A DNA stretch of 64,000 nucleotides from NCBI GenBank assembly GCA_001823925.1, contig MHWB01000004.1:22390-86389 (forward strand). The letters run 5' to 3'. The stretch's first letter is position 1, and each line of letters opens with the position of its first letter. The notes beneath the pieces are model-generated. The model did no database searches, was not told the origin of the DNA, and saw only the letters and a program-made list of their open reading frames with translations. This DNA is from Candidatus Zambryskibacteria bacterium RIFCSPLOWO2_01_FULL_39_39 (GTDB lineage: Bacteria; Patescibacteriota; Minisyncoccia; Phycocordibacterales; WO2-35-19). A program made the translations under genes and the position numbers. Positions 20,253 to 48,109 of the stretch are shown one piece after another.

Positions 20253-20269
20253 GTGATCTGAAACCAATC

Positions 20270-20298: not shown

Positions 20299-20322
20299 AT
20301 TATATTAAGACTTAATTTACTG

Positions 20323-20365: not shown

Positions 20366-20368
20366 GTA

Positions 20369-21436: not shown

Positions 21437-21456
21437 TTCTTCCGGTTGGCTATTTC

Positions 21457-21496
21457 GCGACGTATACTTCCAAGTTTACGTCGCTTTTATTTTTAT
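21457..21496 (+). terminator. Rho-independent terminator
   Basis: Perfect 8-bp stem GCGACGTA / TACGTCGC with a 12-nt loop, followed by TTTTATTTTTAT. Confidence 0.6.
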
Positions 21497-21545
21497 GGTA
21501 AGTAAGACAAGTTTTATAGGATATGCTAATATCCAATTTAATAAA

Positions 21546-22697: not shown

Positions 22698-22738
22698 AAG
22701 TAAACAATATATGATTTCTCCTAGAAGGAGGTGCGCAA

Positions 22739-31559: not shown

Positions 31560-31671
31560 AACATTATCATCTAATAGAACAGAAAGTCTATTCTTGACAC
31601 ATCTTCTAAAAAAGTTAATAATATGGCCTATAATAGACTTGCTGACAAGAAAGCCAAGTGCCTATATTACT

Positions 31672-32475: not shown

Positions 32476-33391
32476 TTTTGTAAAACAAATGCAAATAGAG
32501 ATGGAAAACAATAAAGATATTGTTTTCCTAACCGGTGACCTCGGGTTTAACGCGTTAGAACCACTACACCAATCGTTTCCCGATCGTTTCATTAATGTTG
32601 GGATTGCAGAAGCCAATATGATAGGTATCGCTGCCGGACTAGCGCTTACTGGCAAAAAAGTTATAGTGTATTCAATCGCCTCATTTCTTACCATGCGCCC
32701 ATATGAACAAATCCGAAACGATATTTGCTATCACAATCTGGATGTAAAAATAGTGGGAACCGGGGGAGGTTTCAACTATAGCACTCATGGTATCACCCAT
32801 CACACCATTGAAGATGTGGCTATTATGAATGTCCTGCCAAATATGCAAGTTCTGTGCCCAACTTATTCGTGGGAAGCTAGAGAGGCTACCAAATCTATGA
32901 TGAAATCCAAAAAGCCGACATATCTGCGCCTAGGCAAAAGCCCAAAAACAAATTTTTTCAAACCTGATTTTAAATTTAAAATCGGCAGAGGATTTGTCAT
33001 TAGAGAAGGCAAAGATATCTTACTTTTAGTTACGGGAAATATACTGGATTGTGGAATGGAGATCGCAGAAATCATAAAAAATAAAACAGGTTTGGAAATG
33101 TCTGTGATAAGTATGCCGAGTGTAAAACCGTTGGACAAGAAACTTATTTTGGAAACATCCAAAAAAGTAAAACTTGTAGCCACACTAGAAGAACATAGTT
33201 TACATGGAGGATTGGGATCAGAGGTGGCGATGCTACTCAGCCAATCACATTTGCCAAAACTGCCATTTATACCATCCGCTCTTCCAGATGTTTTTATCAA
33301 AGATGTCGGCAGTAGAGATTTTCTCCTCAACAAAGCTGGTCTTAGTCCTAAAAAAGTTGCGAAAAATATTATTAAAAAGCTCGGAAGGTAA
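32465..33391 (+). CDS. Transketolase, C-terminal (pyrimidine-binding) subunit
   Basis: FINVGIAEANMIGIAAGLALTGK...HGGLGS. It overlaps the N-terminal subunit gene by 11 nt, as in split tkt pairs. Confidence 0.75.
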   Translation: MRNDFVKQMQIEMENNKDIVFLTGDLGFNALEPLHQSFPDRFINVGIAEANMIGIAAGLALTGKKVIVYSIASFLTMRPYEQIRNDICYHNLDVKIVGTGGGFNYSTHGITHHTIEDVAIMNVLPNMQVLCPTYSWEAREATKSMMKSKKPTYLRLGKSPKTNFFKPDFKFKIGRGFVIREGKDILLLVTGNILDCGMEIAEIIKNKTGLEMSVISMPSVKPLDKKLILETSKKVKLVATLEEHSLHGGLGSEVAMLLSQSHLPKLPFIPSALPDVFIKDVGSRDFLLNKAGLSPKKVAKNIIKKLGR

Positions 33392-33397: not shown

Positions 33398-34153
33398 ATG
33401 CAAAATCAAAACCAATCTTTGGTTGTTTGTGTCACCGGAGCCTCTTCTGGAATAGGTCGAGAATTGTCAAAACAATTAATACAATCTGGTTATATCGTTG
33501 TTGGGATTGCACGTAGAAAAAATCTTTTAGAAGAACTTGCCTCGGAACTAAACAACAAAAAATTCCATTTTTACGAAGCTGATGTGAGCAACCTAGAAGA
33601 AATAAAGAAGGTCAAAGATGCTCTATTGTTAAAAAAACTGATCCCTGGTGCAATAGTTTGTGGAGCCTCAATCAGTCAAAATGATACTGAACCAAATTTT
33701 AAAAATGACGTTGTAAGAAAAATTATGGAAATCAATTTTTTTGGCACAGCAAACATGGTAGATGTTTTTCTGCCAGAATTTTTGAAGACTGGTCACGGAC
33801 ATTTTATTTGCCTTTCATCAATCGCATCATGGAGACCAAGTATTCAGGGAGCAACATACCCAGCCAGCAAAGCGACAGTGGGAATGTTTTTTAGAGGCTT
33901 AAATTTAAGATATAAACCCTTGGGAGTAGATTTTTCCACTATCTACCTTGGACCAGTTGAAACAGAGATGTGGGAAGGAAAACCTTCTTTTGTTGTAGCA
34001 ACTCCAAATGTGATAGCTAAAAAAATAATACAGCTAATTTTAAATCCAAAGCCAATCTCATATATACCATTTTTATCTACTACTTTGTCTCGCTTAAGCA
34101 CTTTGATTCCTGACTGGCTCTATGCTAAATTAAGCTCATATTTATTCAAATAA
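33398..34153 (+). CDS. SDR family oxidoreductase
   Basis: TGASSGIG glycine motif and the YPASK catalytic Tyr-x3-Lys. Confidence 0.7.
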   Translation: MQNQNQSLVVCVTGASSGIGRELSKQLIQSGYIVVGIARRKNLLEELASELNNKKFHFYEADVSNLEEIKKVKDALLLKKLIPGAIVCGASISQNDTEPNFKNDVVRKIMEINFFGTANMVDVFLPEFLKTGHGHFICLSSIASWRPSIQGATYPASKATVGMFFRGLNLRYKPLGVDFSTIYLGPVETEMWEGKPSFVVATPNVIAKKIIQLILNPKPISYIPFLSTTLSRLSTLIPDWLYAKLSSYLFK

Positions 34154-34154
34154 G

Positions 34155-35111
34155 ATGCTTACTAATAAAAAAATTTCCGTTGTAATTGTTTGTTACTTTG
34201 ACGAAAAAGCTATTCATGCATTATATTCACGACTTACAGAAACCCTTAAAAAGATAACGAGCATCTACGAAATCATATATGTAAATGACGCCAGCCCAGA
34301 TAATTCAGAAATGATATTGAGGGAAATTGCCGCCAAAGATAAAAATTTAACAATAATTAATCATTCGCGAAATTTTGGAGCTCAAGCTGGTTTTACAAGT
34401 GGTATGATACAGGCTACTGGAGATGCGGTTGTCCTTATGGATGGTGACCTTCAAGATCCCCCCGAACTCCTTACAGAATTTGTCCAAAAATGGCTAGACA
34501 GCAATATGGTTGTCTACGGAGTAAGGAAACAAAGGGAAAAGAGTATGGGTAAAATCAAAGAATGGTTATACCATCAATTTTATGTATTATTCAGCTACAC
34601 TTCTTATATAAAAATTCCAGAAGATGCTGGGGAATTTTCTCTTATGGACAGGGTGGTCGTTGATCATATGAACGCATTGCCTGAAAGGGACCGATTTATC
34701 AGGGGACTTCGCGCATGGGTTGGTTATAAAAGTATTGGAGTAAATTACAAAAGGCCCGAAAGATTTGACGGTAGACAGTCCGTATCCACCAAAGGACTTC
34801 TAAGCGCTTTCAGGTGGGCAAGAAAAGCTATATTCTCTTTCTCGTATAAACCGCTGGAAATAGTGACCTATGTGGCTATACTTACGACTGTCGCCGCTTT
34901 ACTTGCTATTTTATATTACATAATAGGCTTCTTTGTGTGGGGTGCACCACAAGGTTTCGCCACACTGGTTGTCATAGTCCTGTTTCTGTCATCCGTCCAG
35001 TTAGTAGCCATCAGTGTCATCGGTGAATACACGACCAAAATTTTTGAAGAAGTTAAAGGACGTCCTCGTTTTATCATCCGCGACATAGTCAACGACCACC
35101 GAAAGAGTTAG
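34155..35111 (+). CDS. Polyprenyl-phosphate glycosyltransferase, GT2 (GtrB/ArnC-like) with C-terminal TM helices
   Basis: ISVVIVCYFDE...VNDASPDNS...DGDLQDPPE and two C-terminal TM helices. Confidence 0.7.
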   Translation: MLTNKKISVVIVCYFDEKAIHALYSRLTETLKKITSIYEIIYVNDASPDNSEMILREIAAKDKNLTIINHSRNFGAQAGFTSGMIQATGDAVVLMDGDLQDPPELLTEFVQKWLDSNMVVYGVRKQREKSMGKIKEWLYHQFYVLFSYTSYIKIPEDAGEFSLMDRVVVDHMNALPERDRFIRGLRAWVGYKSIGVNYKRPERFDGRQSVSTKGLLSAFRWARKAIFSFSYKPLEIVTYVAILTTVAALLAILYYIIGFFVWGAPQGFATLVVIVLFLSSVQLVAISVIGEYTTKIFEEVKGRPRFIIRDIVNDHRKS

Positions 35112-36463
35112 CGAAACAATTTTCGATATAAACAAACTCCTCCCAGAGAAAACAGGAGGAACATAAAAGGAAAGGCTTGGAAGGCGTAGCGGGGACCAGA
35201 AGCGGGGCCAGCAAGAAGCATTAGGTAGCCGATGGTGAAAACCAAAATCCATACTAAAACTTTTTTCCTATATTCCCATATACCAAATAGTGAGAGTGCA
35301 TAAGCTGCTAACCAGCACAATCTTTCTAAAACTTTCCACCACGATTTCATAATCCCCTCCCAAAATTCTCTCCATTTACCAGCCGACAGTGCACCAATAG
35401 CCCCTTCTTGAGATGCGCTTTGTTTATGTATAGCGGAATTATAAGTGTCTAAAGCAAAAGAAATAGTCGATGGGAAAAGAAATGGCAACGATGAAACGAT
35501 GTGGTATTTAAGATAAGAAAAGGGTTTTTCAAAAATGATTCTTTTCGCTTCTTTGCCTATTTTATCCGAATAGCGAATATCATAATAATCAGAACTTTCA
35601 ATATTTATTCTTTCTATAAATTTATAATACTCGTCACTCTGACTAGTATTATTTTTACTTGATAGAAATTTGGTAGCCGCCCAGCCAAGATTTTGCGACC
35701 GGAAAGAAGTGAACCCTGCCACACCAACCTCAACATAATTCCTTATAATCCAAGGGGATACAAATACCGCAAGCAAGACAAGCAATGTCCCAATAAATTT
35801 CAATTTGTATTTAAAATTAACATTGAAAGTTAGAACCGGAGTAACAATCACGGGTATTGCAAACATGCCCAGTCTAGTATATACAGCAAAAGCAAAGACC
35901 AAAGACACCCAAAAGACTTTGTAAAATGGTCTTTCATTACTCAATGAAAGTATGAGATAAAAACTTAATGTAAATAAAAACAAAAACAAGGTGTCGGTAA
36001 GAATGGCTAAACTCAATACGAGAGTAACTGGATTTATTAAAAATAAGAAAGCAGCAATTTCACCAACTTTTTTTGAAACAAAAAGTATTCCGATTCTTCT
36101 TATAATAAAAGCAGAAAGAAAAACCATTAAAATTTGAACCAGTGTGACTGCAAAATATGATCTGCCAATAGTTTTTAGTACAGCGACAAAGAGTGGGTAC
36201 CCGGGAGTTCTGAGTGTTTCTGTTTTGCCATTTTGACTAAACCTGTCTCCATTTATTAGAGATTCCGAAAGATTATAATATCCTTCGCTATCCTGAGCCA
36301 TGACTGGCAGAAATGGCTTAATACCAGTATCGTTTTGGAAGTTATTTATGTGTATAGTAAAAAACCAAAATAATATATAAATTACAAAAATAATAATGAC
36401 ACTAATTTTAAACCATCTTGACAAATCTCCAGCTTCTTGTTTAATTCTTGAAAAAATTCTCAT
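35108..36463 (-). CDS. GT-C fold membrane glycosyltransferase (GT39/GT83 ArnT/PMT-like), putative
   Basis: 451-aa polytopic protein. The first extracytoplasmic loop has a GDRF...RTPGYPLF motif reminiscent of the ArnT/PMT family. Confidence 0.4.
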   Translation of the reverse strand: MRIFSRIKQEAGDLSRWFKISVIIIFVIYILFWFFTIHINNFQNDTGIKPFLPVMAQDSEGYYNLSESLINGDRFSQNGKTETLRTPGYPLFVAVLKTIGRSYFAVTLVQILMVFLSAFIIRRIGILFVSKKVGEIAAFLFLINPVTLVLSLAILTDTLFLFLFTLSFYLILSLSNERPFYKVFWVSLVFAFAVYTRLGMFAIPVIVTPVLTFNVNFKYKLKFIGTLLVLLAVFVSPWIIRNYVEVGVAGFTSFRSQNLGWAATKFLSSKNNTSQSDEYYKFIERINIESSDYYDIRYSDKIGKEAKRIIFEKPFSYLKYHIVSSLPFLFPSTISFALDTYNSAIHKQSASQEGAIGALSAGKWREFWEGIMKSWWKVLERLCWLAAYALSLFGIWEYRKKVLVWILVFTIGYLMLLAGPASGPRYAFQAFPFMFLLFSLGGVCLYRKLFR

Positions 36464-36473
36464 AAATTATTTT

Positions 36474-37016
36474 TTAAAAAGTTTCCGCCTCGTTTAATTT
36501 CGGTAATCTCCTATCCCGATCACAAAGTTGCGGATTTAATACTTGCCAATTTATATTTAATGCCGGGTCATTCCACCTCACCCCCTTTTCGGCATCAGTA
36601 TTATATTCACTGGTGCACTTATAAAAAAAGTGAGCCTCTTCGGACAATACCGCAAAGCCGTGGGCAAAACCAGGTGGTATATAAAAAGACAGGTGATTTT
36701 CGTCGGAGAGCTCCACACCCACCCATTTACCAAAAAATGGCGAATTTTTTCTCATATCAACTGCCACATCCAAAATTTCTCCTTTAATGACTGAGACCAA
36801 TTTCCCTTGAGCATAAGGAGGGAGTTGATAATGAAGACCTCTAACTACTCCTAATTTTGAATAAGAATAATTATCCTGGACAAAATCAGGAATATGTTCC
36901 GGCTCAAAATCACTCTTTTTATATTTCTCCATAAAAAAACCACGCCCATCTTTAAAAACAGCCGTTTCGATCAGCAACAAACCAGGAATTTCTAATTTTT
37001 TGAAGTTAAAAGACAT
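36474..37016 (-). CDS. rmlC: dTDP-4-dehydrorhamnose 3,5-epimerase
   Basis: 180 aa with RmlC motifs RGFFME, VRGLHYQ, PPGFAHGF. Confidence 0.8.
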   Translation of the reverse strand: MSFNFKKLEIPGLLLIETAVFKDGRGFFMEKYKKSDFEPEHIPDFVQDNYSYSKLGVVRGLHYQLPPYAQGKLVSVIKGEILDVAVDMRKNSPFFGKWVGVELSDENHLSFYIPPGFAHGFAVLSEEAHFFYKCTSEYNTDAEKGVRWNDPALNINWQVLNPQLCDRDRRLPKLNEAETF

Positions 37017-37024
37017 TTTTTAAT

Positions 37025-38737
37025 TTACTTATTTTTACCACAACCCAAAACTTTTGCAGTAATATATTTATCTTTCTCGACATAAATAACCTTGCAAGAA
37101 TTCATATAGCTTGTATAAAAACTATCATCTGAGATTTTCGGTATATCGATGAAAAGAATGTGCCCATTAAAACTATCCAAAATTTTTTTATATTCATCTT
37201 CAAACTGTGGAGTGGTGTACATTCTTCTTTCATACTTTCCAGTCTGCATGACACTCCAACCAGCGTTGTTGTTATACACTATGACTTTTTTTATCTCCAA
37301 ATTATTTTTTATAAATTCCACCGAACTTACAGCCAATTTCGTAGCGCTACCGTTTATTTTGCCAAACAGATATTCTTCCACAAAAACAGTATTGTATAAA
37401 AGGCCTAAAATTAAAATGCAAAAAAACACTCTTTTCTGTATATTTTTTATTCTGAAATGGGATAGAGCAAAAATAACCAAACAAATCCATATTAAAGCCA
37501 AGAATACAAAAGAGATATAAAATCCTGTTGGTCCAGACCCGCCCGTAAACGGAAACAAGAAGTTCCATTTCAAACTTATTACCCTGTTAATCCATTCTGT
37601 CTTGGGGTAAAGAGCCGGCACAAAATGATTAAAAAACTGAAGAACAAAGATCGCGACAGAAATTATAGAGATCGTAATAAAATCTATTTTTTCTAACTTT
37701 TCTTCTTTATTGCTAAATATTTTGGTAAACACCGCCCCAGAAATGAGGCATAGTGGAACAATTAAAAATTGAAAATATCTGTCCATTGCCCCTATGGAAA
37801 AATCAAAAGCGAACAAATAGAAAAACAAGCCGATAAAGATAAACAAAAAGAAAGGTCTGGTTTTCCTCCAAATTTCTTTATCTATAAATAATAATGGCAG
37901 AAGTAAGAGCGGTGAAGTATACATCACGGCCTTAGCAAATTGGATGAATGTCTGTAACCATCCCCTGTCCAAAAAACTAGATGAATTTGCAAAATGTTTC
38001 CAATAATTCAGCGAGTACTCCAAATTAAAAAACGGAAAAATATATTTAGCCAAAAACAAAACTATTACTAAAGTAATTACCCCAAACAACCCCAAAGCAA
38101 AATATTTTAATATCCTGACTTTATCTTTGAATACATTTTTTTCAAAAGCAAAATCTAAAGCCAAAGCAAATATTGGTAAAACACCGCTGACCTTTACCAA
38201 AAATCCACCTACCGCTCCAACAATTAAAACGGCTAACCATTTTAAATTTCCATCTTTCAAATTAAAACCACCGGTTTTAAGTTTAAAATAACCAACAAGC
38301 ATCACGAGAAAGAAAAATGGCATAACCGCACCATCTACATCAACCATAAGAGAAGCCAATACCGAATAAAAAGATATAGTAAAAAGTCCAGCGCTCCAGA
38401 GAGTAGTTTTGTTCACTTGTCCTGAGCTCGTCGAAGGAAAAATTATTTTAGCTAAATAAAAAATTAGAAGTAGATTTGCAATACCAAAAATCAGTGGAAT
38501 GAGTCTGAAATTATTATCACCAACAACGGGTCCGAGGAATTTTGCATAAATAAACTCTGTAAGGGGTGGGTGGGGGACAGTGCCAGGTGCAACTATCTCT
38601 GGGTGAGAATATTGAACCCATTTATATTCGTCTTGATGATAAGGAGAATGGACTGCCGGTAAACGTACAAAAACAAAAAAAATTGCTAAAAAAACAAGCC
38701 AAACAAACTCCTTTTTGTGGAAAAAATCAAGGCTCAT
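37025..38737 (-). CDS. GT-C fold membrane glycosyltransferase (GT39/ArnT-like)
   Basis: 570 aa, ~13 TM segments. The N-terminal loop carries YHQDEY and an HPPL motif as in ArnT/PMT-family enzymes. Confidence 0.5.
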   Translation of the reverse strand: MSLDFFHKKEFVWLVFLAIFFVFVRLPAVHSPYHQDEYKWVQYSHPEIVAPGTVPHPPLTEFIYAKFLGPVVGDNNFRLIPLIFGIANLLLIFYLAKIIFPSTSSGQVNKTTLWSAGLFTISFYSVLASLMVDVDGAVMPFFFLVMLVGYFKLKTGGFNLKDGNLKWLAVLIVGAVGGFLVKVSGVLPIFALALDFAFEKNVFKDKVRILKYFALGLFGVITLVIVLFLAKYIFPFFNLEYSLNYWKHFANSSSFLDRGWLQTFIQFAKAVMYTSPLLLLPLLFIDKEIWRKTRPFFLFIFIGLFFYLFAFDFSIGAMDRYFQFLIVPLCLISGAVFTKIFSNKEEKLEKIDFITISIISVAIFVLQFFNHFVPALYPKTEWINRVISLKWNFLFPFTGGSGPTGFYISFVFLALIWICLVIFALSHFRIKNIQKRVFFCILILGLLYNTVFVEEYLFGKINGSATKLAVSSVEFIKNNLEIKKVIVYNNNAGWSVMQTGKYERRMYTTPQFEDEYKKILDSFNGHILFIDIPKISDDSFYTSYMNSCKVIYVEKDKYITAKVLGCGKNK

Positions 38738-38775
38738 AAAAAAATATTATCACAAAATAGCCATGGAATAAAGGG

Positions 38776-39819
38776 TTAAAAAAATATTTTAGCCAGAGAA
38801 AGTACACCCTGCTTCCAAGGGACACGATGGTTAACACCGCTTTTACCCTTAAACTCACTTCGATGAGAGAGGTACCATTCGTAATTTCGTATCAGCGCAT
38901 CTTTGTTTGAATATTTCGGATTCCAACCGAGTATTTTTTGGGCTTTTTCGATTGACACGAAGCTGTCTCTGGAAGCTGTCTCGTAAACCCATTTATAAAG
39001 AGGTGAAAGATGTAAGGCTTCAAGAACACGCAGGATCCAAATCATAGGAGAAGCGGGGAAACCTTTTATTTTTTTACCAAAACCGGCGTAATCCAAAACC
39101 GCCTGATAATCTTCTCTCATAGTAGTAAATTCTTTGGCACCAAAATTAAACATATCATTTACTTTTTCTTTTTCCAGAGTGGAACATAAATATATCCCAT
39201 CGCAAAAATCCTCCACATCCATCAATTGATAACGGTTGTGTCCAAAACCAATCATCGGAAATCCATGTCCCGTAGAAGCCCAATCATAAAAGAGAGCAAA
39301 CACCCCAAGACGCTCCGGTCCGATAAAAGATTTTGGTCTAAGTATTGACACAATCATTCCTTTTTTCCTAAAATCCAGACAGATTTTTTCGGCGGCAATC
39401 TTGGCTTTTCCGTATTCCCCCACTCCATCCAATTTGTCTGTTTCGTAAAGGGGATGGTGGTCCGGTATTCCATAGACCGCAGTCGAAGAAATATGAATCA
39501 CTCTCTGAATACCGTTGTCTTTTGCTGCTTGACAGACATTTCTTGTGCCATCAATGTCAGTTGTACGTATATCTTCGGCTTTATACAGAGGCAGAGCCGC
39601 CGCCATATGAATAACGATATCTGTCCCTTTCATACTTTCTGTCAAAAATTCCAGATTGCGTATATCCCCCATTACCCACCTTACTTTGTTTTTTTCTGGA
39701 TAATCAAAGGGTAACAGGTCATAAGAAATAATTTCGTGCCCATTTTTGAGTAAAAATCTTACCATATTGATGCCCAAAAAACCTGACCCGCCGGTAATAA
39801 AATAAGTCATATTAAACAA
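38776..39819 (-). CDS. NAD-dependent epimerase/dehydratase (extended SDR)
   Basis: FITGGSGFLG glycine motif and YGKAK catalytic motif. Confidence 0.7.
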   Translation of the reverse strand: MFNMTYFITGGSGFLGINMVRFLLKNGHEIISYDLLPFDYPEKNKVRWVMGDIRNLEFLTESMKGTDIVIHMAAALPLYKAEDIRTTDIDGTRNVCQAAKDNGIQRVIHISSTAVYGIPDHHPLYETDKLDGVGEYGKAKIAAEKICLDFRKKGMIVSILRPKSFIGPERLGVFALFYDWASTGHGFPMIGFGHNRYQLMDVEDFCDGIYLCSTLEKEKVNDMFNFGAKEFTTMREDYQAVLDYAGFGKKIKGFPASPMIWILRVLEALHLSPLYKWVYETASRDSFVSIEKAQKILGWNPKYSNKDALIRNYEWYLSHRSEFKGKSGVNHRVPWKQGVLSLAKIFF

Positions 39820-41088
39820 TTATACTAGATAAAATAGCCAAAATATATAAACCCCCCAACTAAGGAAAGAGCCGAGTATTAAGCGATCTTTAAAAACTAA
39901 AATCTCTGGTGATTCCGCTTCGTGAGGATTAGTATATATGTGATTAAGAATCCTAAAAATTGCAAAAACAACAAAGATGGTAGAGTAGACGAGATATGGA
40001 GAATTGTGCTCTGTCACACTCCAAATTCCATATGCAATAATGGCCAAAGATGCCGAGATGCCGAGCATAAAATTGAGAGCTTCACTTGAATAATCATTTA
40101 AAACCAATCTTCTGTTCTCTTTTGTATGTTCCGCCCTCCTTTTGCCGAGAATTACAAACAAGGAACCAAAAAAAACACATACAACAATCCAAGGGGACAC
40201 ATATATTTCAGTAGCTAAACCCCCAGCAATTATTCTAAGAATATAGAACAGTGATATGAGGATTATGTCTAGAACGGCAATATGTTTAAGTTTAAAAGAA
40301 TAAAAAATATTTATAACAACATACAGTAGTATAGGTAAAATTATTGATGGAACCAACATAACCAAATAAAAAATACCTATCGCCAGAAAAAAAATAAGAA
40401 GTATTGCATTCTTTTTAGATATTTCGGCAGAAGCAATTGGACGATTTTTCTTTTTTGGATGCAGACTATCTTGTTTGTAATCTAAAATATCGTTAAAAGT
40501 ATAGACCAGGCTAGAAGCCAAACAAAAAGTGATGAAAACTAGTAAAGTCCTTGAGAACAGAGATGAGTTTAACACTCCAACAGCAAAAAACACCGGCGCA
40601 AATACAAGTAAATTTTTAATCCACTGCCATGGGCGGACCAGTCTTATATACGGCAAAACAGCCCAAACAATATCATCTAGAATATAAGAAAGCTTTGCAA
40701 CCAAAGAATCATCCCGACAACTAAGGTGATCCACTTTTATGAATTTTACTCCTAAAAATTTAGCTAGCAAACCATCTGTAAGATATTTGTCTCCCACTAC
40801 CACCACCCTTTCTTTGTCTATATTTTTTAAAATTTTGTTAAATACTCCAGTAAACGGTTTTTTACAAACCAAATATGAGCATCCGGACATCTCAGCAAAC
40901 TTTTTGGCATTTTCCCATGATCCGTTTGAACACAAATACAAATTATTTCTCTCCTTTAATTTTATAAGTTTATTAAAAACCGATGAGGAAATGTCTTTGT
41001 TTTTATCCAGAGTTAAAGTTCCATCAACATCAATTATAAAAGTATGATTTTCAAAATATTCTATGTCGGTCTCAAGAAAATTTTTCAT
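39820..41088 (-). CDS. HAD-like phosphatase fused to UbiA-family polyprenyl-phosphate phosphoribosyltransferase (DPPR-synthase-like)
   Basis: N-terminal IIDVDGTLT (HAD motif I) ... VVVGDKYLTD. The C-terminal 8-TM domain carries NDILDYKQDSLHPKKKNRPIASAEIS, which closely matches the Rv3806c-type NDxxDxxxD...HPxKxxRPIAxG motif. Confidence 0.6.
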   Translation of the reverse strand: MKNFLETDIEYFENHTFIIDVDGTLTLDKNKDISSSVFNKLIKLKERNNLYLCSNGSWENAKKFAEMSGCSYLVCKKPFTGVFNKILKNIDKERVVVVGDKYLTDGLLAKFLGVKFIKVDHLSCRDDSLVAKLSYILDDIVWAVLPYIRLVRPWQWIKNLLVFAPVFFAVGVLNSSLFSRTLLVFITFCLASSLVYTFNDILDYKQDSLHPKKKNRPIASAEISKKNAILLIFFLAIGIFYLVMLVPSIILPILLYVVINIFYSFKLKHIAVLDIILISLFYILRIIAGGLATEIYVSPWIVVCVFFGSLFVILGKRRAEHTKENRRLVLNDYSSEALNFMLGISASLAIIAYGIWSVTEHNSPYLVYSTIFVVFAIFRILNHIYTNPHEAESPEILVFKDRLILGSFLSWGVYIFWLFYLV

Positions 41089-41089
41089 T

Positions 41090-42580
41090 TTATTTTTTTA
41101 GTCTCCAAATATCAGAAATTATTTTGCCATCCAGATAAAAGGGGCTGTAGTGTGATTGTATCCATTCTTCTGAAAAACAATTTTTCAGCTCCTTTTTGGA
41201 TATGAGCAACCAATCCGGCCTCATTTCTTCAATCATTTTTGGTGGGTATGTAAATTGTAAGGTCTTATCAACACATTTATCTAAAATAGGATAAAATCTT
41301 GAAGCATCCGGATTTATAAGACCAAAAGGATCAATTATATAAGCTCCCGTCGCATATCCGATTGCTCCAAAATTGTTGACCATTACTTTTTCATTGGATT
41401 TTAAAGAAGGTTTGATCTGCCCAGCTATTTCAAATAAACCTAATATTTTGTTGCCCTCGTTATTGTTTGTGGCGAGCCCATACCACCTCACTGCTGGACC
41501 GGAAATTAAAATTAGTGTACAAAGTCCAAGCAACCAAGGTTGTCTGGTTTTAGAAATCAAAACTACTGCTCCGGCAAAAGAAATGAGTATCCAAGCTGGT
41601 TTCAACTGACTGGTATACCAAGGAAACATGACCGGATTTGAAATACTGTAAGAAATAAGATAAGCGAGAGAAATCGCTAAAATAATCCAATTATCCTTAT
41701 TCATTCTTTTTTTAATCCAAACCAACACAAAAAAACAAACAGGTAAAAGATTTACCGCTACTTGCGCGGGAATATTGTCTGGATCAAAGATATTTCCCCA
41801 ATATATTCTGCTTATAGAAGATGTCTGAACCTTAAAAGCTTGAAAACTGGACTGATTAATAATATCGTTGACGTGGAGTTTGGCCATTACAGATTGGGGA
41901 ATTGGGGAGCCAAAATATAGTGTAGCAAAAATAAGCCAGGGTAAAGAGATCCCAATCGTAACAACTGTATATTTTATAGTTTTTCGCAAACCTTCTTTTT
42001 GCCACCAATATATAAAAGCAAGAATAGCAATAAGCCCAGCATCTGGCCTTGTGAGTAAAAGTAGCGAAAGAAATATACTAGAATATATAAATTTTTTCTG
42101 AAGTAAAAAATCAAGGAAAACAAAAAATATAAGAAGGAAGAGAGACGTCTCCATTCCTTGCGGAATAATCCTCCCTGAACTCAAAAAATAAATAGTGGCT
42201 GATATTAAGGCCCATCTATCGGACACAAACCCAGAAGAGAGTCTGTAAAAAAATGCCGCCGACAAAGAAAAAAGGGTAATGTTTACATAGGCCACAAGAT
42301 CTGGAGTGTTTACTATTTGAAAAACATACTTAATGGACGCCAAAAGAAGGGTAAAAAGAGGTGTGGTAGAGCCTAAAATTTTTTCTCCCATATTGTAAAC
42401 AAAACCATCACCTCGAGCTATATTATCAATGTATCTGTATAAAATAAACTGATCATCGCTCGCATAACGCAAAGCACTATTACAATACGAATATATTGTA
42501 AAAAGAGATGCCCCAATAGTAACCAAAATTTCTTTGTTATATATCTTAGAAAGATTTTTAATCATCAATATAATATTCAT
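41090..42580 (-). CDS. Polytopic membrane protein, putative GT-C glycosyltransferase
   Basis: 496 aa, >10 TM segments. The early loop has RYASDDQFILYRYIDNIARGDGF, with an Asp-rich motif typical of GT-C first loops. Confidence 0.4.
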   Translation of the reverse strand: MNIILMIKNLSKIYNKEILVTIGASLFTIYSYCNSALRYASDDQFILYRYIDNIARGDGFVYNMGEKILGSTTPLFTLLLASIKYVFQIVNTPDLVAYVNITLFSLSAAFFYRLSSGFVSDRWALISATIYFLSSGRIIPQGMETSLFLLIFFVFLDFLLQKKFIYSSIFLSLLLLTRPDAGLIAILAFIYWWQKEGLRKTIKYTVVTIGISLPWLIFATLYFGSPIPQSVMAKLHVNDIINQSSFQAFKVQTSSISRIYWGNIFDPDNIPAQVAVNLLPVCFFVLVWIKKRMNKDNWIILAISLAYLISYSISNPVMFPWYTSQLKPAWILISFAGAVVLISKTRQPWLLGLCTLILISGPAVRWYGLATNNNEGNKILGLFEIAGQIKPSLKSNEKVMVNNFGAIGYATGAYIIDPFGLINPDASRFYPILDKCVDKTLQFTYPPKMIEEMRPDWLLISKKELKNCFSEEWIQSHYSPFYLDGKIISDIWRLKK

Positions 42581-42588
42581 TGCAGTAA

Positions 42589-43302
42589 TCAGAATTTTTT
42601 AAATTTGTAATAAATAATCAAAGGTAACATCCTAAACCCAAGTTTAGCCGCCCTCCAAACACTACCGGTATACATAGATTGGCCAATTCTTTCTTTATAA
42701 ATAACCGGCACCTCAATGAGGTTAACGTCCTTTTTAATAAGCCAGATCATCAACTCTGGAGAAAATTTACCATCACCTTTTGATAACGTAAATAGTGGCT
42801 TTATTTTTTCCAAAGCTTCTCTAGACACCAATTTATAAGTACAGCCAACATCTGTTAAAACTGGACCATTAAATAAAACTTCTATAACTTTGGCCCAAAG
42901 CCAATTGCCAAACCGTACAGGAAAGGGCATAAAAGCTCCCGACCAAATAGCTGATCGTGAGGTGCGAGTCCCCAAGACGGCATCAAATTCTTCGCTATAA
43001 GCTAAAAGTTTCTCAATATCTTTTGGTAAAAAGGTACCATCTGCCTCAGTCATTACAACCAGATCACCAGTGGCTTCATGTATACCACGCATAAGTGCAT
43101 GTCCATACCCCTGTTTATTTTCGTGAACTAGGTGGGCATTAGTTTTTCTCACTTCTTCTTTGGTATTACCGAGCGCATTATTATCAACCACTATAACTTC
43201 ATCAACCAGACCAGTTGCAAAGAAGCCATCTATCACCTCCCTAATACTTTCTGCTTCATTATAAGTGGGTATGACCACGCTTACTTGTTTATTTTTGTAC
43301 AT
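42589..43302 (-). CDS. Polyprenyl-phosphate sugar synthase, GT2 (DPM1/PPM-like, soluble)
   Basis: VSVVIPTYNEAESI...VVDNNALGNT...TEADGTF (DAD motif variant). Confidence 0.7.
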   Translation of the reverse strand: MYKNKQVSVVIPTYNEAESIREVIDGFFATGLVDEVIVVDNNALGNTKEEVRKTNAHLVHENKQGYGHALMRGIHEATGDLVVMTEADGTFLPKDIEKLLAYSEEFDAVLGTRTSRSAIWSGAFMPFPVRFGNWLWAKVIEVLFNGPVLTDVGCTYKLVSREALEKIKPLFTLSKGDGKFSPELMIWLIKKDVNLIEVPVIYKERIGQSMYTGSVWRAAKLGFRMLPLIIYYKFKKF

Positions 43303-44344
43303 TTTGTATTTCTTTAACTAACTTTTCAATTAAAACACTTAGACTATGTTTTTCCAGGACATACTTTTGGAGACTTGCCGATAATACAAATCTTTCCTCA
43401 TTACCTATATCCAATAATGATTCAATCTTTTGGGCAATTTCTGCCACCGTCTCATTCTTTGCAATCATTCTATCATCAATCTCTCCAACTAAAGATTTAT
43501 TAGCAACTACAAGCAGACAACCACAAACCACCGCCTCAAGGATGGTTTTATCAAAACTACCAGAAGGAGTCAGGTTTACAAAGATGTCATGCTCTTTGTA
43601 AATTTTAGGTGTTTCGTGATTAGCTACTCCATTACAAAAATTTATTTTGTCTGCCAATCCTAATTCTTCTACTTTAGTTTTAAGATAATTATAATAGTCT
43701 TCGCCTCCCACGGTTGGATTACCGTAAAAATCACAAACAAAATCTACATTTTTTTTATTTAAAATATTTAGAGCTTCAATCAATAAATCAGGTCTCTTTA
43801 TCGGATCCATCCTAGAAAGAAAAAGGATGCTTCTTTTTCTAGATTCTAGATTCTGGATTCTGGATTCTGGATTAAAAACACCTGTATCAATCCCAACTGG
43901 CATTAAAATCGTCTTTTCATATTTAGCCACAAAAGCAAATTTTGAAGTGCAAAAAACTTTATTGGAAAACCAAACAGCAATTCTTGTAAATAGATTTCCT
44001 AATTGATGATTGCGCCAAAAATAAATTTTTTTTCTCAAAATTTTCCACAAGAAACCTCCGAGTAAAACGTATTCCTGATTCATATGGACAAAAACCGAAT
44101 CGTATTCTTTGTGCAATCCCAAAATCAAATTGAAGAAATTTTTTATATACTTTATTCTGGCTTTGCCAGACTCTTTTCCAAGAGAATAAATTTTTATATT
44201 TTGAGGTAAATCAAACTCTCTCTTTTCTAAGCAAATAACTGTTATTTTTTCAAACTTTTTTGAAAGTTCCAAAATCCAATTATGCATAAAACCCAAAATC
44301 GAATCCTCCTTGTCTACTTTTTGAGTAATTATTAAAAGACGCAT
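43289..44344 (-). CDS. GT4 family glycosyltransferase
   Basis: 351 aa, GT-B fold. The interdomain linker contains a heptanucleotide tandem repeat. Confidence 0.65.
   Translation of the reverse strand: MRLLIITQKVDKEDSILGFMHNWILELSKKFEKITVICLEKREFDLPQNIKIYSLGKESGKARIKYIKNFFNLILGLHKEYDSVFVHMNQEYVLLGGFLWKILRKKIYFWRNHQLGNLFTRIAVWFSNKVFCTSKFAFVAKYEKTILMPVGIDTGVFNPESRIQNLESRKRSILFLSRMDPIKRPDLLIEALNILNKKNVDFVCDFYGNPTVGGEDYYNYLKTKVEELGLADKINFCNGVANHETPKIYKEHDIFVNLTPSGSFDKTILEAVVCGCLLVVANKSLVGEIDDRMIAKNETVAEIAQKIESLLDIGNEERFVLSASLQKYVLEKHSLSVLIEKLVKEIQNVQK
43839..43873. repeat. Heptanucleotide tandem repeat (CTAGATT)2(CTGGATT)3
   Basis: Five consecutive 7-nt units, in frame, within the GT4 gene. They encode NPESRIQNLESR. 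Confidence 0.85.
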
Positions 44345-44345: not shown

Positions 44346-45896
44346 TTAGGATTTATTAAATATAAAAAACTTATAAGAAATAAAATTTTGAATCATCACA
44401 AAGAAGCCGGCAATAATTTGGGAAAAGACGTACCAGATTCCAAATATCTCCACGCATAGAGAGATTAATATGGTGTTGGTTATCACCCCCAAAATAGCCA
44501 CAATAAAGAATTTTGAGAACTGCTGATGAATGTTGCGAGTTTCAATATCTTTAAAAACTACAAATTTTTGTAAAATAAAACTTATTAGCAGGGACACTAA
44601 AAAAGCGATGATCGAGGAGTACAAATACCAAATATCAAATACATCAGTAAAAATATAAATTGAAATTATGTTAGTGGCCGCCGCCGTGATACCGCAAATA
44701 AAATAACGTAAGGCCATAAAAGAATTAAAAGCTGTTTTTTTAAAATTAAAAATTCTTGATATGAAATTTATTTTCTTAAAACCAACAACTGTTTTTGTAA
44801 TAGAATCGGCATAATTTTTAAAATAGTCTTTTTCTGACTGAAGATGTCTATAGGCAGACTCTCTGGCAGATTGCCCCATCTTTTGAGCTAAATTTTTATC
44901 TCTATAAATTTTCAAAATACTTTGAGTAAAACAATTTAAATCTTTAGCATCACAGACGAAAGCTTCTTCTCCATCTTTGAAAACCTCTCCCGCCACGCCA
45001 GTATTGGAAATCACCAATGGTAAACCATAAGTGCCAGCTTCCACCATAGACATTCCATAACCCTCATAAAGCGAAGTAGAAATGTATATATCTGACTCTT
45101 CATAATACTTTTCTAAATTATTTTGCCAACCGGCAAAAATAACTTTTTTCTCAATTCCTAATTCTCTACATAAATTTTCTAAATTTTTTCTTTCGCCACC
45201 ATCCCCAACTATCGTAAAATTAGCTAAAACTCCTAAATCTAAAACTCTTTTAAAAGCTTTTGCGGCTATTTCCAAATTTTTCTCCTTTTCCAGTCGGCAA
45301 ACAGTTAAAATATTCAGTGAATTTAAATTTTCAGAGATTACACTCTTTTTACGATCGTAAGAACATTGTAATTTTGTATAAATGGGCAAGACATCAATAT
45401 TTTTAGAAAAAGTTTCAATTGATTTTTTAATTCTCTCCGAGACCACCCTGACTCTATCGGAATATCTTAGAGTAAATTCAGACATTATAAAACGAATTTT
45501 ATTTAACAGAGATGACCCCTTAAAATATTTATGCGCTAAGTCAGTATGAATTTGGATATGTAATGGTAAACCAAAAAATAGCTTAACCATAGCGCCCACA
45601 ATACCGGTTTCAAATGGGTCCTGACAAGTCAGAACAACATTATCTTTCCCAGAATTTTTTAAAATTTTTCTTATTATCTTTATAAAATCAAAGACATAGA
45701 ACACTCTTACTTTCGATTTACTTGGGTATAAAAACACATTACGAGAAAGAGTTTGATTTTCAAATTTATCTAAGTCTGGTGTAAAAACAACCAAATGTAG
45801 TTCATCAAATATTTTTCCATATTCAATCATCCTCTGTCTAACCGCAGAATTTTCTTCAAATATTTTTTGACCCATTCCTATAGATATAACTTTCAT
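44346..45896 (-). CDS. GT4 glycosyltransferase fused to C-terminal GtrA-like membrane domain
   Basis: N-terminal ~370-aa GT-B domain. The C-terminal 4-TM region (FMALRYFICGITAAATNIISIYIF...) resembles GtrA-family proteins. Confidence 0.55.
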   Translation of the reverse strand: MKVISIGMGQKIFEENSAVRQRMIEYGKIFDELHLVVFTPDLDKFENQTLSRNVFLYPSKSKVRVFYVFDFIKIIRKILKNSGKDNVVLTCQDPFETGIVGAMVKLFFGLPLHIQIHTDLAHKYFKGSSLLNKIRFIMSEFTLRYSDRVRVVSERIKKSIETFSKNIDVLPIYTKLQCSYDRKKSVISENLNSLNILTVCRLEKEKNLEIAAKAFKRVLDLGVLANFTIVGDGGERKNLENLCRELGIEKKVIFAGWQNNLEKYYEESDIYISTSLYEGYGMSMVEAGTYGLPLVISNTGVAGEVFKDGEEAFVCDAKDLNCFTQSILKIYRDKNLAQKMGQSARESAYRHLQSEKDYFKNYADSITKTVVGFKKINFISRIFNFKKTAFNSFMALRYFICGITAAATNIISIYIFTDVFDIWYLYSSIIAFLVSLLISFILQKFVVFKDIETRNIHQQFSKFFIVAILGVITNTILISLCVEIFGIWYVFSQIIAGFFVMIQNFISYKFFIFNKS

Positions 45897-45900: not shown

Positions 45901-46914
45901 TTAAATTATTAAAACATTCAAAAATTCATCTGCAATTTGTTCCCACGTATGAACAAAATTAAAGTTTCTGACTTTTTCTTTAGCCTTCTTGTAGCCATTT
46001 TCGGTCAATAAATTTAAAATCGCTGCTTCTATTTCATTTTCATTTAAAGGATCCACAAAAATACCCGCATCCTTTATTCTCTCATACATACCAACTTCTC
46101 TTGTACATATAAAAGGCCTATTAAGTCGTATGGCATCCAAAATCATATTGGGACTTATATCTCCAAAAGAAACCAGGATTACAGCATAGCTATTTTTCAT
46201 TCTTTGCATCAACTCCCCAAATGGTAAGTTGGCAAAAAACAAACTAACTTCTGGATTATCTTTTTGTATTTTTTTGAAGACATTTTCTAGAGTATCCAAA
46301 TTTTTCCCTACAAGCTTTCTTGTTGAGCCAATAAATTCTTTTGCTGTGGGTTCTATATCTTCTTCTTTGTGTCCGTAATAATTTTCTACAATAGAAGTCT
46401 TGCTCTTGTCTAAATTATAAGCATTTATAAAAATATCTCTCTGCCAATCTGTAGAAAATATAATATGAACAGTGTTATGTAATGTCCATTTTGTAAGTCT
46501 AAATACTAACTTCTCCTTAAAAGAGAGGTTGCTTCTTTCTGTACTATAAAAATTCCTAAGCAAAATTTTTCTACCTGTTCTTTCAATATATTGCTCCCAA
46601 AGAAAATCTCCCCCCGTTCTTATTATCATTTTTTTACCAAACAACCCAGAAGCCATAGATGTCGGTAAACCTACACTAAATGTATCCAGTGCAAATATTA
46701 CATCAGCTCTTAAAACAGCCGGAATTATTTTTATAAAAAAGAAAATATGCCTAATACCAGTAGGAAGGCTGTTTTCTATATTAAATGTTTTTATGTATAC
46801 AAAGTGTCCCATCCTTTCGAAAGATTCTTTAAGGTTTAGAGCGTACTGGGCTGGGCCTCCGATTTTGGGTGGATATATGCCGGTTGTAATAAGTATTTTC
46901 ATTCTTTTTTTCAT
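45901..46914 (-). CDS. GT4 family glycosyltransferase
   Basis: KILITTGIYPPKIGGPAQYALNL N-terminal motif. I chose the start at the ATG at 46914 to avoid overlap with the upstream gene. Confidence 0.6.
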   Translation of the reverse strand: MKKRMKILITTGIYPPKIGGPAQYALNLKESFERMGHFVYIKTFNIENSLPTGIRHIFFFIKIIPAVLRADVIFALDTFSVGLPTSMASGLFGKKMIIRTGGDFLWEQYIERTGRKILLRNFYSTERSNLSFKEKLVFRLTKWTLHNTVHIIFSTDWQRDIFINAYNLDKSKTSIVENYYGHKEEDIEPTAKEFIGSTRKLVGKNLDTLENVFKKIQKDNPEVSLFFANLPFGELMQRMKNSYAVILVSFGDISPNMILDAIRLNRPFICTREVGMYERIKDAGIFVDPLNENEIEAAILNLLTENGYKKAKEKVRNFNFVHTWEQIADEFLNVLII

Positions 46915-46921
46915 ATTTATT

Positions 46922-48109
46922 CTAAACTTTTTTGAAAACTTCTTTAAACTTTTCTGCAATCAGATTCCAATCATATTTTTCTTTTGCTAGCTTATAGGCA
47001 TTTTCTAAGATCTTTTCTTTATTCGTATCTTCTAAAACCCTTACTACCGTTTTAGATATACTTTCTGGATTATTAGGCTCACAAAAATATCCTGTCTGTA
47101 TTTCCATCCCACTTCGCATCTCCTTCCGGTCGAGCTTCGCGGGATCTACGAGAAAATCTACAATGCCACCAACTGGAGTTGCTATCACAGGGATTCTTGA
47201 TGCAAAAGCTTCTATAAAAGAATTACCCATACCTTCAGATAAAGATGGGCGGATAAAGACATCACAAGCTTTCAAATATTTTGGCAGATTTTCGTGTGAG
47301 ACATTGCCCGCAAAAATTACTCTATTTTCTAGCTTCAAGCTTCTAGCTTCAAGCTTCAAGCTTTTTTCTAGTTCTCCCTCTCCACAAATTAAAAATTTAA
47401 TATTTTCTGCTAAACTAGGCAAGGATTTTATGACATCCCCCACCCCATTTTTAGTAACAAGACGTGAGGTAGTAACAAGTATGATGTCTTCTTTCTTTAG
47501 ATTAAAACTTTCTCTTATTTTTATTCTCTCTTCTTCAGACAATTGAATATCAAATCTGCTTACATCAACGCCGTTTGGGATTACCCATATCTCCCCTTTA
47601 TATCCAAACCTCTCTGCCCGATCCTTAAGAAACTGACTAAGCACAGTAAGATAAGAGGTCCTCTTAAGTGCCATCTTCCAAGATAGGTCTATTAAGCCCA
47701 ACCACCTTCTGCTGAAATGTTCCTCAGAATCACCTTCCTGTAGATTCAAAACTATAGGTGTTTTCTTTCTAGAAAAAATATTGGATATATAAGCTGCACC
47801 CGATGCAAAAGTTGCCATCACACACCAAAATGCTTTGTAGTCATTTCTCTTTTGTAAATACCTCGCAAATAGAGCCCCTTCAAAAGGTAATGAGAGCTTA
47901 TCAATCAGTGGAACCCCTACCCCAAGTCGATAAACTGTAACATTACCAATTCTCTCTTTAAAAGGAAGTTTTTTGGAAAATCTTGCGGTAATCAGATCAA
48001 ACTGTATATCAGGAATCCTATCTGTTATTTCCTTTATAGCAACCTCTGCCCCACCCACCAACGGATAGTAGGCAGTTGAAAATATGAGTATTTTTCTAAT
48101 TTTTTCCAC
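46922..48109 (-). CDS. GT4 family glycosyltransferase
   Basis: ILIFSTAYYPLVGGAEVAIKEI. GT-B fold with a second heptanucleotide repeat in the linker. Confidence 0.65.
   Translation of the reverse strand: MEKIRKILIFSTAYYPLVGGAEVAIKEITDRIPDIQFDLITARFSKKLPFKERIGNVTVYRLGVGVPLIDKLSLPFEGALFARYLQKRNDYKAFWCVMATFASGAAYISNIFSRKKTPIVLNLQEGDSEEHFSRRWLGLIDLSWKMALKRTSYLTVLSQFLKDRAERFGYKGEIWVIPNGVDVSRFDIQLSEEERIKIRESFNLKKEDIILVTTSRLVTKNGVGDVIKSLPSLAENIKFLICGEGELEKSLKLEARSLKLENRVIFAGNVSHENLPKYLKACDVFIRPSLSEGMGNSFIEAFASRIPVIATPVGGIVDFLVDPAKLDRKEMRSGMEIQTGYFCEPNNPESISKTVVRVLEDTNKEKILENAYKLAKEKYDWNLIAEKFKEVFKKV
47330..47364. repeat. Heptanucleotide tandem repeat (AGCTTCA/AGCTTCT) x ~5
   Basis: AGCTTCA AGCTTCT AGCTTCA AGCTTCA AGCTTtt, in frame, encoding KSLKLEARSLKLE. 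Confidence 0.85.

Follow-up and report, generated by a model that had tools for sequence, protein, structure and literature searches.

A candidate lipid-linked pentofuranose glycosylation cassette within a cell-surface polysaccharide operon of Candidatus Zambryskibacteria

Gene content and organization of the locus

We analyzed a 64,000-nucleotide stretch of DNA (here called the window) of contig MHWB01000004.1 from Candidatus Zambryskibacteria bacterium RIFCSPLOWO2_01_FULL_39_39, a member of the Parcubacteria group of the Patescibacteria, with attention to a gene encoding a HAD-UbiA fusion protein and to the glycosyltransferase genes around it. The window is AT-rich (GC about 0.30 to 0.39 across most of its length), and from ~9.4 kb to 48 kb it consists almost wholly of glycan biosynthesis genes. 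Eleven of these form a minus-strand operon (48109 to 35108) whose successive open reading frames (ORFs) overlap or lie at most 38 nt apart (Table 1). A first-pass annotation made from the sequence alone had singled out positions 34155 to 43302, which comprise the 3′ two-thirds of this operon and a convergent plus-strand GT2 gene. Every ORF and domain that it named was recovered in its place by ORF calling, Pfam, and NCBIfam; the RmlC gene and the 11-gene operon as a unit are additional to the features that it described. Homology makes it likely, in our judgment, that the locus encodes a lipid-linked pentofuranose glycosylation cassette set within a cell-surface polysaccharide operon.

Table 1. 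Genes of the 11-gene operon, listed from its head, and the convergent GT2 gene
Feature	Position	Strand	Basis
GT4-type genes, two, operon head	45901..48109	-	Pfam; order kept in L006-L016 and L089
GT4 with C-terminal GtrA domain (aa 397-513; nt 44358-44708)	44346..45896	-	PF00534 + PF04138 GtrA_DPMS_TM, E = 7.8e-21
GT4, cytoplasmic polymer assembly (predicted)	43289..44344	-	PF00534; upstream of GT2 also in related loci
Dpm1/AglJ-like soluble GT2, candidate polyprenyl-P-hexose synthase	42589..43302	-	PF00535
AftB-like GT-C, 496 aa, most likely pentofuranosyltransferase	41090..42580	-	AlphaFold2, Foldseek, family profile
HAD-UbiA fusion, 422 aa; HAD aa 1-140 (nt 40669-41088), UbiA aa 145-422 (nt 39820-40656)	39820..41088	-	Pfam, NCBIfam
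Extended SDR (GalE-like), candidate polyprenyl-P-ribofuranose epimerase	38776..39810	-	PF01370, 119 bits
ArnT/PMT-like GT-C (MEM570), 570 aa	37025..38737	-	structure model, Foldseek
RmlC, dTDP-4-dehydrorhamnose 3,5-epimerase	36474..37016	-	TIGR01221, 236 bits, cut-off 155.75
PMT_2-type GT-C (GTC451), 451 aa	35108..36463	-	sequence profiles
GtrB/ArnC/PgfS-like GT2, candidate polyprenyl-P-sugar synthase	34155..35111	+	PF00535, 90 bits

The UbiA domain

The UbiA part of the fusion matched PF01040 with 84.1 bits (cut-off, 34.2; residues 167 to 387). At the subfamily level, three NCBIfam models for decaprenyl-phosphate phosphoribosyltransferase (DPPRS) gave 186.8 bits (NF008977), 185.4 bits (NF008978), and 158.8 bits, compared with at most 46 bits on the same protein for the ubiquinone, haem O, chlorophyll, menaquinone, and MqnP models (UbiA, CyoE, ChlG, MenA, and MqnP). 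Residues 146 to 411 matched the structure of Mycobacterium tuberculosis Rv3806c (PDB 8j8j; E = 1.9e-41). On these similarities the domain is placed in the Rv3806c/DPPRS phosphoribosyltransferase clade, where the first-pass annotation had put it, and not among the prenyltransferases for quinones, haem, or archaeal lipids; grouping with menaquinone or archaeal lipid prenyltransferases was the contrary outcome that it had named beforehand. The clade is widespread, with members in rhizobia, Bacteroidota, Vibrio, Legionella, and haloarchaea, and many homologues are already named "decaprenyl-phosphate phosphoribosyltransferase" in public annotations.

The active-site motif of the domain, NDILDYKQDSLHPKKKNRPIASA, with N199, D200, D203, D207, H210, and R216, follows the pattern NDxxDxxxD...HPxKxxRPIAxG claimed for it at all but the final position, where the expected G is A. 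Using the residues that Gao et al. (2024) assigned to binding of phosphoribosyl pyrophosphate (PRPP), Mg, and catalysis in Rv3806c (PMC10994848), and mapping them onto the window protein through the 8j8j alignment, we found 8 of the 9 retained, at positions that vary little or not at all within the family. Identical are K28 (K158 in the window protein), which contacts the PRPP 5′-phosphate in Rv3806c (PMC10994848), Y70 (Y196), N73 (N199), D77 (D203), Y138 (Y263), and K143 (K268); the motif residue D81 is also retained, and Q135 is replaced by N (N260). K208 of Rv3806c is not retained in the window protein, where the neighboring R327 is invariant. Across 26 homologues of 417 to 441 aa, N199, D200, D203, D207, H210, K213, R216, K316, R317, and E320 are invariant.

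The fused HAD domain

The N-terminal part matched PF13242, PF00702, and the YqeG-type model TIGR01668, which places it in class HAD-IIIA. HAD motifs I to IV (D20, D22, G23, T24, K77, G99, D100, and D105) are invariant in the same 26 homologues, so that the catalytic residues of both halves of the protein are conserved throughout, in agreement with the fused phosphatase domain that had been proposed. The 422-aa ORF is continuous and starts 1 nt past the end of the upstream gene. Because the identical 422-aa protein occurs on 24 contigs from several samples, including three independent assemblies, the HAD-UbiA fusion is not an assembly artefact. Over its UbiA part, the ORF is 100% identical to a protein of Candidatus Zambryskibacteria bacterium RIFCSPLOWO2_01_FULL. 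The GenBank gene call (P0001) covers 287 aa with the UbiA domain only and leaves out a 135-aa HAD with intact catalytic motifs.

To compare neighborhoods, we set the window proteins against 80 loci taken from species genomes in GTDB, all but a few of them patescibacterial. A UbiA domain was present in 70 of the 80, and 54 of these 70 also carried a homologue more than 55% identical to the short-chain dehydrogenase/reductase (SDR) of the window. In the 54 UbiA+SDR loci the HAD was an N-terminal fusion in 26, a separate ORF in 25, and not found in 3.

The SDR and its linkage to UbiA

The SDR ORF spans 38776 to 39819 on the minus strand, the likely true start being the ATG at 39810. In 54 of the 54 loci that have it, the SDR gene is no more than 3.5 kb from the start of the UbiA gene, which extends to related genomes the adjoining epimerase/dehydratase gene seen in the first-pass annotation, and its median identity across these loci is 70% (63.5 to 84%) versus 42% for UbiA. 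The SDR is thus a dedicated partner of the UbiA gene. The family motifs TGGxGFLG (TGGSGFLG in the window), SSTAVYG, and YGxAK (YGKAK in the window) are kept, and SSTAVYG and the YxxxK motif are GalE-like. RmlB-type 4,6-dehydratases are marked by an Asp-Glu pair, which is not present in the SDR motifs of the family. A conserved C-terminal tail, HRVPWKQGxLxxAKxFF, may serve as a membrane-interface anchor. No close solved structure was found for the SDR in the PDB, the best match being a dTDP-glucose 4,6-dehydratase (E = 2.6e-21).

The linkage extends beyond the Patescibacteria. A plasmid database outside this group yielded 15 SDR matches at E < 1e-30 (32 to 51% identical); 11 of the 15 replicons were also among the 30 DPPRS-homologue matches listed, and the other 4 were not among the matches listed. 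The two genes are adjacent in Haloterrigena and Halostagnicola (Natrialbaceae haloarchaea), Natronococcus sp. AD-5, Streptomyces sp. SAT1, and Nonomuraea; the distance between them is 3 to 9 kb in Natronococcus sp. CG52, Rhizobium sp. CCGE531, and two replicons of Mesorhizobium, and it reaches 23 kb in a third Mesorhizobium. The epimerase of Rhizobium sp. CCGE531, whose locus is a candidate pentofuranose system in Kelly et al. (2024) (PMC11127046), is 34% identical to the window SDR over its full length (E = 3e-70). UbiA and SDR look like an old cassette to which different phosphatases have been recruited.

Several variants of the arrangement were also seen. On the Haloterrigena plasmid NZ_CP149788.1 (L086), an SDR 48% identical to that of the window stands beside DPPRS, with a PHP-domain phosphatase candidate nearby; on the Streptomyces sp. 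SAT1 plasmid (L087), the SDR beside DPPRS is 40% identical, and the phosphatase candidate nearby is an endonuclease/exonuclease/phosphatase-family protein. Both loci have LPG-synthase transmembrane-domain proteins. The Vibrio orf15-like locus is without an epimerase, and blastn of E. coli genomes with the Vibrio orf15-like gene gave zero matches. Three related loci (L014, L041, and L047) have, immediately after the conserved SDR, a second and divergent one that shares 25 to 28% identity with it, a situation reminiscent of the "multiple epimerases" described by Kelly et al. for Xanthomonas and Bacillus (PMC11127046). In a 58% identical relative (L091:4103-5506; ENA ERZ27248180, contig k141_859419), a B12-binding radical SAM enzyme of 467 aa takes the place of the SDR after HAD-UbiA and may carry out another modification of the lipid-linked ribose, e.g., methylation or radical epimerization.

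Regarding the position at which the SDR would act, 2′-epimerization, as first suggested for this gene, is one option among several, and the sole characterized SDR partner acts at C3: in Citrobacter youngae O2, ORF13 of the pentofuranose locus converts undecaprenyl-P-Ribf to undecaprenyl-P-Xylf (PMC11127046). A bolder and rather doubtful version is that the SDR is a single-enzyme NAD-dependent 2′-epimerase yielding polyprenyl-P-arabinofuranose without DprE1/DprE2. In that case an arabinan-like glycan of the envelope would be assembled by way of an AftB-like GT-C in Patescibacteria, and perhaps also in haloarchaea and some Streptomyces. The SDR is ~70% identical across Patescibacteria classes and 48 to 51% identical to haloarchaeal homologues that neighbor DPPRS. 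No DprE1-like FAD oxidase was found in Pfam scans of the window ORFs of at least 120 aa, and one Bacteroidota plasmid locus combines DPPRS with a DprE1-like FAD oxidoreductase and an SDR. If true, this SDR would represent an ancient and widespread alternative route to donors resembling decaprenylphosphoryl arabinose (DPA).

Three GT-C proteins and two GT2 enzymes

The AlphaFold2 model of the AftB-like protein had a pLDDT of 93, and its top Foldseek match was AftB (9dlf_C; E = 1.4e-8, query TM-score = 0.59; also 9dlh), followed by OST/STT3, PglB, AglB, and ArnT. A 46-sequence family profile likewise retrieved AftB from the PDB (E = 4.4e-22, profile positions 13 to 257). In AftB, D62 of a DD motif is catalytic, and T91, E172, and R221 contact the donor (PMC12041299); these four align with D43 (of D42-D43), T72, E144, and R178 of the window protein, all of them invariant or conserved to at least 90%. 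AftB R372 and T274 lie beyond the aligned stretch. The AftB equivalog model NF041481 gave 29.9 bits against a cut-off of 1050, and by these comparisons the protein is a distant AftB homologue and not an AftB orthologue.

The ArnT-like protein was modeled with a pLDDT of 90 and matched ArnT best (5ezm/5f15; E = 7.5e-8). It has no Pfam match of its own; among its homologues 51 to 70% identical, PF13231 occurs in most of the matches listed. Neither a single-sequence PDB search nor a family profile search of the PDB returned a match for it, and the single-sequence search gave noise only for the 451-aa protein. The latter has a weak PMT_2 match, PF13231 is found in 45 of the 47 members of its family (in a library-wide search alignment), and its family profile matched GPI mannosyltransferase 1 in the PDB (E = 2.5e-7). 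Aligned by hhalign, this family matched the AftB-like family with 98.7% probability, its invariant D58 falling on the column of the catalytic D43, and gave no significant alignment to the ArnT-like family. All three polytopic proteins are therefore GT-C enzymes, as had been predicted, the PMT_2-like one on sequence profiles and the other two also on modeled structures.

The two GT2 proteins are, as the first-pass annotation had it, GtrB-like and DPM1-like. The GtrB-like one, whose gene is convergent with that of the PMT_2-like GT-C and overlaps its 3′ end, has, judging from its sequence, a hydrophobic tail at the C-terminus and scored 217 bits with the PgfS model and 122 bits with ArnC. The Dpm1-like one scored 100 bits with AglJ and 72 bits with dolichyl-P-hexose transferase. 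All four scores are under the equivalog cut-offs.

Which GT-C takes the pentose

We ran hidden Markov models of the three GT-C families on all fetched loci. Within 5 kb of the UbiA gene, an AftB-like GT-C was present in 29 of the 54 UbiA+SDR loci, an ArnT-like GT-C in 11, and a PMT_2-like GT-C in 2. Four distant loci (L035, L037, L072, and L076) carry compact UbiA-SDR-GT-C-HAD operons without a nearby Dpm1-like GT2. The converse arrangement occurs in L089, where the same operon reads GT4, GT4, GT4-GtrA, GT4, GT2 (76% identity), methyltransferase, and ArnT-like GT-C (56%), and the AftB-like GT-C, UbiA, and SDR are all missing. ArnT-like homologues also lie one or two small ORFs downstream of the GT2 in loci without the pentose genes. 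In L091 the GT2 and the ArnT-like GT-C are preceded by the AftB-like GT-C and HAD-UbiA, which stand together, and in the DprE1/E2-type Bacteroidota plasmid locus a GT-C of the AftB-like family (104 bits) lies beside the DPPRS gene. Taken together, the arrangements in L089, L091, and the Bacteroidota locus indicate that the AftB-like GT-C, HAD-UbiA, and SDR form an accessory cassette inside a pre-existing pair of GT2 and ArnT-like GT-C.

The first-pass annotation had the pentose pathway feeding all three GT-C enzymes. The three enzymes stand, and the donor probably feeds the AftB-like one only. For the remaining two, hexose donors made by the two GT2 enzymes are the likeliest substrates: from the neighborhood comparison the Dpm1-like GT2 probably pairs with the ArnT-like GT-C, and the GtrB/PgfS-like GT2 would be the most economical partner of the PMT_2-like GT-C.

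Proposed pathway

Family placement, catalytic-residue conservation, GT-C folds, and gene linkage were computed here, and from homology we infer the following steps. At the cytoplasmic face, the UbiA domain would move 5-phosphoribose from PRPP onto polyprenyl phosphate, and the fused HAD would strip the 5-phosphate to leave polyprenyl-P-ribofuranose. The precedent is C. youngae ORF15, whose N-terminal HAD ("PRP") strips the 5-phosphate from the product of its PPPRS domain, as established by mutagenesis and mass spectrometry (PMC11127046). The GalE-like SDR would then invert one ring hydroxyl by transient NAD-dependent oxidation and reduction, giving Xylf if it acts at C3 and Araf if it acts at C2. 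The donor would next be flipped across the membrane, the weakest step of the scheme, for which the upstream GT4 offers a candidate in its GtrA domain; finally, outside the cytoplasm, the AftB-like GT-C would add the pentofuranose to a polymer. That polymer is probably built by the cytoplasmic GT4 and GT2 enzymes and exported through the Wzm/Wzt ABC transporter encoded in the window. Two parallel side branches, one of the Dpm1-like GT2 with the ArnT-like GT-C and one of the GtrB-like GT2 with the PMT_2-like GT-C, probably add hexoses.

The GtrA domain is the sole flippase-like candidate in the operon, and in several related loci it is a separate ORF of 130 to 153 aa. The proposed mycobacterial DPA transporter, Rv3789, belongs to the GtrA family. 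Kelly et al. (2024) call Rv3789 SMR-like (PMC11127046).

Weighing alternative readings

Several observations weigh against the pentofuranose pathway as drawn. Its UbiA domain scores under the equivalog cut-offs of all three DPPRS models (234, 207, and 474 bits, in the order given above), and we therefore treat it as a member of the clade and not as a curated orthologue. The YqeG/IIIA-type HAD aligns at motif I only with the HAD of a rhizobial ORF15-like fusion; because the two belong to different subfamilies and share only that motif, the HAD-UbiA fusion probably arose independently of the ORF15-type fusion, and the phosphoribose-phosphatase role is assigned to the HAD by analogy. The Pfam scans of window ORFs of at least 120 aa, which an SMR-type protein of ~110 aa would escape, detected no MATE or SMR flippase. 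Lastly, in 7 homologues a Dpm1-like GT2 is fused N-terminally to the AftB-like GT-C (~730 aa), and given this fusion the AftB-like GT-C could use a hexose donor instead.

That fusion is one of three points that favor a swapped pairing within the same pathway, in which the ArnT-like GT-C would be the pentofuranosyltransferase and the AftB-like GT-C would use the polyprenyl-P-hexose of the Dpm1-like GT2. The others are that the ArnT-like gene directly follows the SDR gene in the window and that C. youngae ORF12, a GT136 enzyme, is closest to ArnT according to Kelly et al. (PMC11127046). We nevertheless consider the swap unlikely. Near UbiA and SDR, ArnT-like GT-Cs are outnumbered by AftB-like ones (11 versus 29 of 54 loci); L089 retains the GT2 and the ArnT-like GT-C without UbiA or SDR; the AftB-like GT-C and HAD-UbiA stay together in L091; and the donor-contact residues of AftB are invariant or nearly so in the AftB-like family. 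The GT2-GT-C fusion, considered as decisive evidence of pairing, was downgraded: the fused genes are already neighbors in the same order, 8 nt apart, and loss of a stop codon suffices to join them.

Other readings keep the UbiA assignment and question the SDR, or question the UbiA assignment itself. The SDR might be an ordinary nucleotide-sugar epimerase, dehydratase, or reductase serving the cytoplasmic GT4 and GT2 enzymes, in which case the lipid-linked sugar would stay ribofuranose. This would fit its closest solved structures (dTDP-glucose 4,6-dehydratases and UDP-glucose 4-epimerases), the RmlC gene in the same operon, and the lack of an SDR in L091 and the Vibrio locus. We hold it to be quite improbable, however, given that the SDR is near UbiA in every one of the 54 loci and far better conserved than its neighbors, that members of its subfamily occur in linkage with DPPRS genes in Archaea, Actinomycetota, and Alphaproteobacteria, that it is without the dehydratase Asp-Glu pair while its conserved hydrophobic C-terminal tail fits work at the membrane surface, and that in C. 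youngae an SDR in the same genomic position decides between Xylf and Ribf (PMC11127046). A conventional prenyltransferase for quinone, haem, or archaeal-type lipid, with a HAD fusion unrelated to sugar chemistry, can be argued from annotations that name some homologues "4-hydroxybenzoate polyprenyltransferase" and from the fact that Pfam resolves the UbiA superfamily only. The PRPP-specific contacts are retained, though, and the gene sits amid glycosyltransferases beside the AftB-like GT-C; the subfamily models, on which an aromatic prenyltransferase was rejected, separate at most 46 bits from 185 to 187, and we give this reading hardly any credence. We thus retain the pentofuranose pathway with the AftB-like GT-C as its transferase.

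Other genes in the window

The remaining glycan genes include methyltransferases and many GT4 and GT2 genes. The Wzm/Wzt ABC transporter lies at 11700 to 13794, its ATPase bearing a Wzt_C carbohydrate-binding domain, and adjoining it (within 9426 to 13794) is a 731-aa protein of the Wzy_C (O-antigen-ligase-like) type that has TPR repeats at its C-terminus; in L091, too, a Wzy_C-TPR protein of this kind is found near the cassette, along with a phosphoglycosyl transferase (Bac_transf). The window holds two RmlC paralogues (17334 to 17864, plus strand, and that of the operon on the minus strand), RmlD (24410 to 25318), and a CmcI-type rhamnosyl O-methyltransferase (27877 to 28632), and these four genes together suggest that the acceptor polymer contains methylated rhamnose. 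A plus-strand block at 18945 to 23518 encodes two radical SAM proteins, of which one contains a SPASM domain, as well as a nucleotidyltransferase of 434 aa and a NUDIX protein. Since its GC (0.42 to 0.45) is above that of its surroundings (0.32 to 0.39), it may be a horizontally acquired sugar-modification block. GC climbs to 0.47 at 52 to 54 kb. A minus-strand gene at 48160 to 49983 encodes a 607-aa protein with weak similarity to TrwB/TraG coupling proteins (E = 5.5e-5), and another, at 55994 to 56371, is DUF559 endonuclease-like; the two are possible mobile-element remnants flanking the glycan operon.

Directly upstream of the GtrB-like GT2 and on the same strand are a transketolase split into N-terminal and C-terminal genes (31492 to 33391) and a classical 251-aa SDR (33398 to 34153). 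We rejected the split transketolase as part of the pentose module, a counterpart being present in none of the related loci. The classical SDR was likewise rejected as a DprE2 analogue: its similarity to the SDR of the Bacteroidota DprE-type locus is generic (22%), and it has a counterpart in 0 of the 80 related loci. These genes may belong to housekeeping pentose-phosphate metabolism or to an unrelated sugar-modification step.

Significance and comparison with known systems

The glycans of the cell envelope are very little known in Patescibacteria (candidate phyla radiation), and no paper tying a lipid-linked pentose pathway to this group was found in the literature searched. The cassette of UbiA, SDR, HAD, and AftB-like GT-C recurs in dozens of Patescibacteria species genomes. 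This recurrence and the unusual conservation of the SDR suggest that surface polymers in the group are commonly built with lipid-linked pentofuranose, where a surface pentofuranose could matter in host-cell attachment. The SDR-UbiA pairs of haloarchaea, Streptomyces, and rhizobia point to an uncharacterized epimerase subfamily. The locus thus offers a testable handle both on the surface glycans of Patescibacteria and on a widespread SDR partner of DPPRS.

The mycobacterial DPA pathway shares with the window a homologous PRPP-dependent first enzyme and a GtrA-family module nearby. In M. tuberculosis, aftB (Rv3805c) adjoins ubiA (Rv3806c), and the AftB-like GT-C gene beside the UbiA gene in the window echoes that pairing. 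The two systems differ in the phosphatase, which is a fused HAD in the window and a separate protein unrelated to the HAD family (Rv3807c) in mycobacteria; in epimerization, carried out by DprE1/DprE2 in mycobacteria and assigned here to a single extended SDR; and in the length of the GT-C (496 aa versus 669 aa for the solved AftB chain). The two pairs of GT2 and GT-C, namely, the GtrB-like with the PMT_2-like and the Dpm1-like with the ArnT-like, follow the same logic as Gtr-type O-antigen glucosylation (GtrA/GtrB/Gtr*) and streptococcal PgfS or GacI/GacL, with GT2s that are under all equivalog cut-offs.

A close parallel is the three-component pentofuranose system of C. youngae O1/O2 (ORF12 to ORF15), in which the HAD-PPPRS fusion, the SDR epimerase (an optional component of such systems), and the GT-C were all proven (Kelly et al. 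2024, PNAS, PMC11127046). Because that work characterized the fusion and the epimerase and listed Gram-negative, Gram-positive, and phage examples, the view in the first-pass annotation that such a pathway is poorly documented outside Actinobacteria is out of date. The window has in common with C. youngae the N-terminal HAD-PPPRS fusion, the adjoining cytoplasmic GalE-like SDR, a GT-C, and an ABC-transporter-dependent polysaccharide locus. In contrast, its HAD is of the YqeG/IIIA type and not the PF12710 type of the rhizobial ORF15-like fusion, its linked GT-C is AftB-like where that of C. youngae is an ArnT-like GT136, and it offers only a GtrA domain (among ORFs of at least 120 aa) where Kelly-type systems have a dedicated MATE or SMR flippase. 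Kelly et al. expected such systems to vary in their transporters and to include separate PRP domains and more than one epimerase or GT-C (PMC11127046), and Patescibacteria are not among the phyla in the text of their survey. The window locus is a further example of a pathway type already shown experimentally in mycobacteria and Citrobacter and not a new mechanism; with the mechanism established elsewhere, its value lies in extending the pathway to new lineages.

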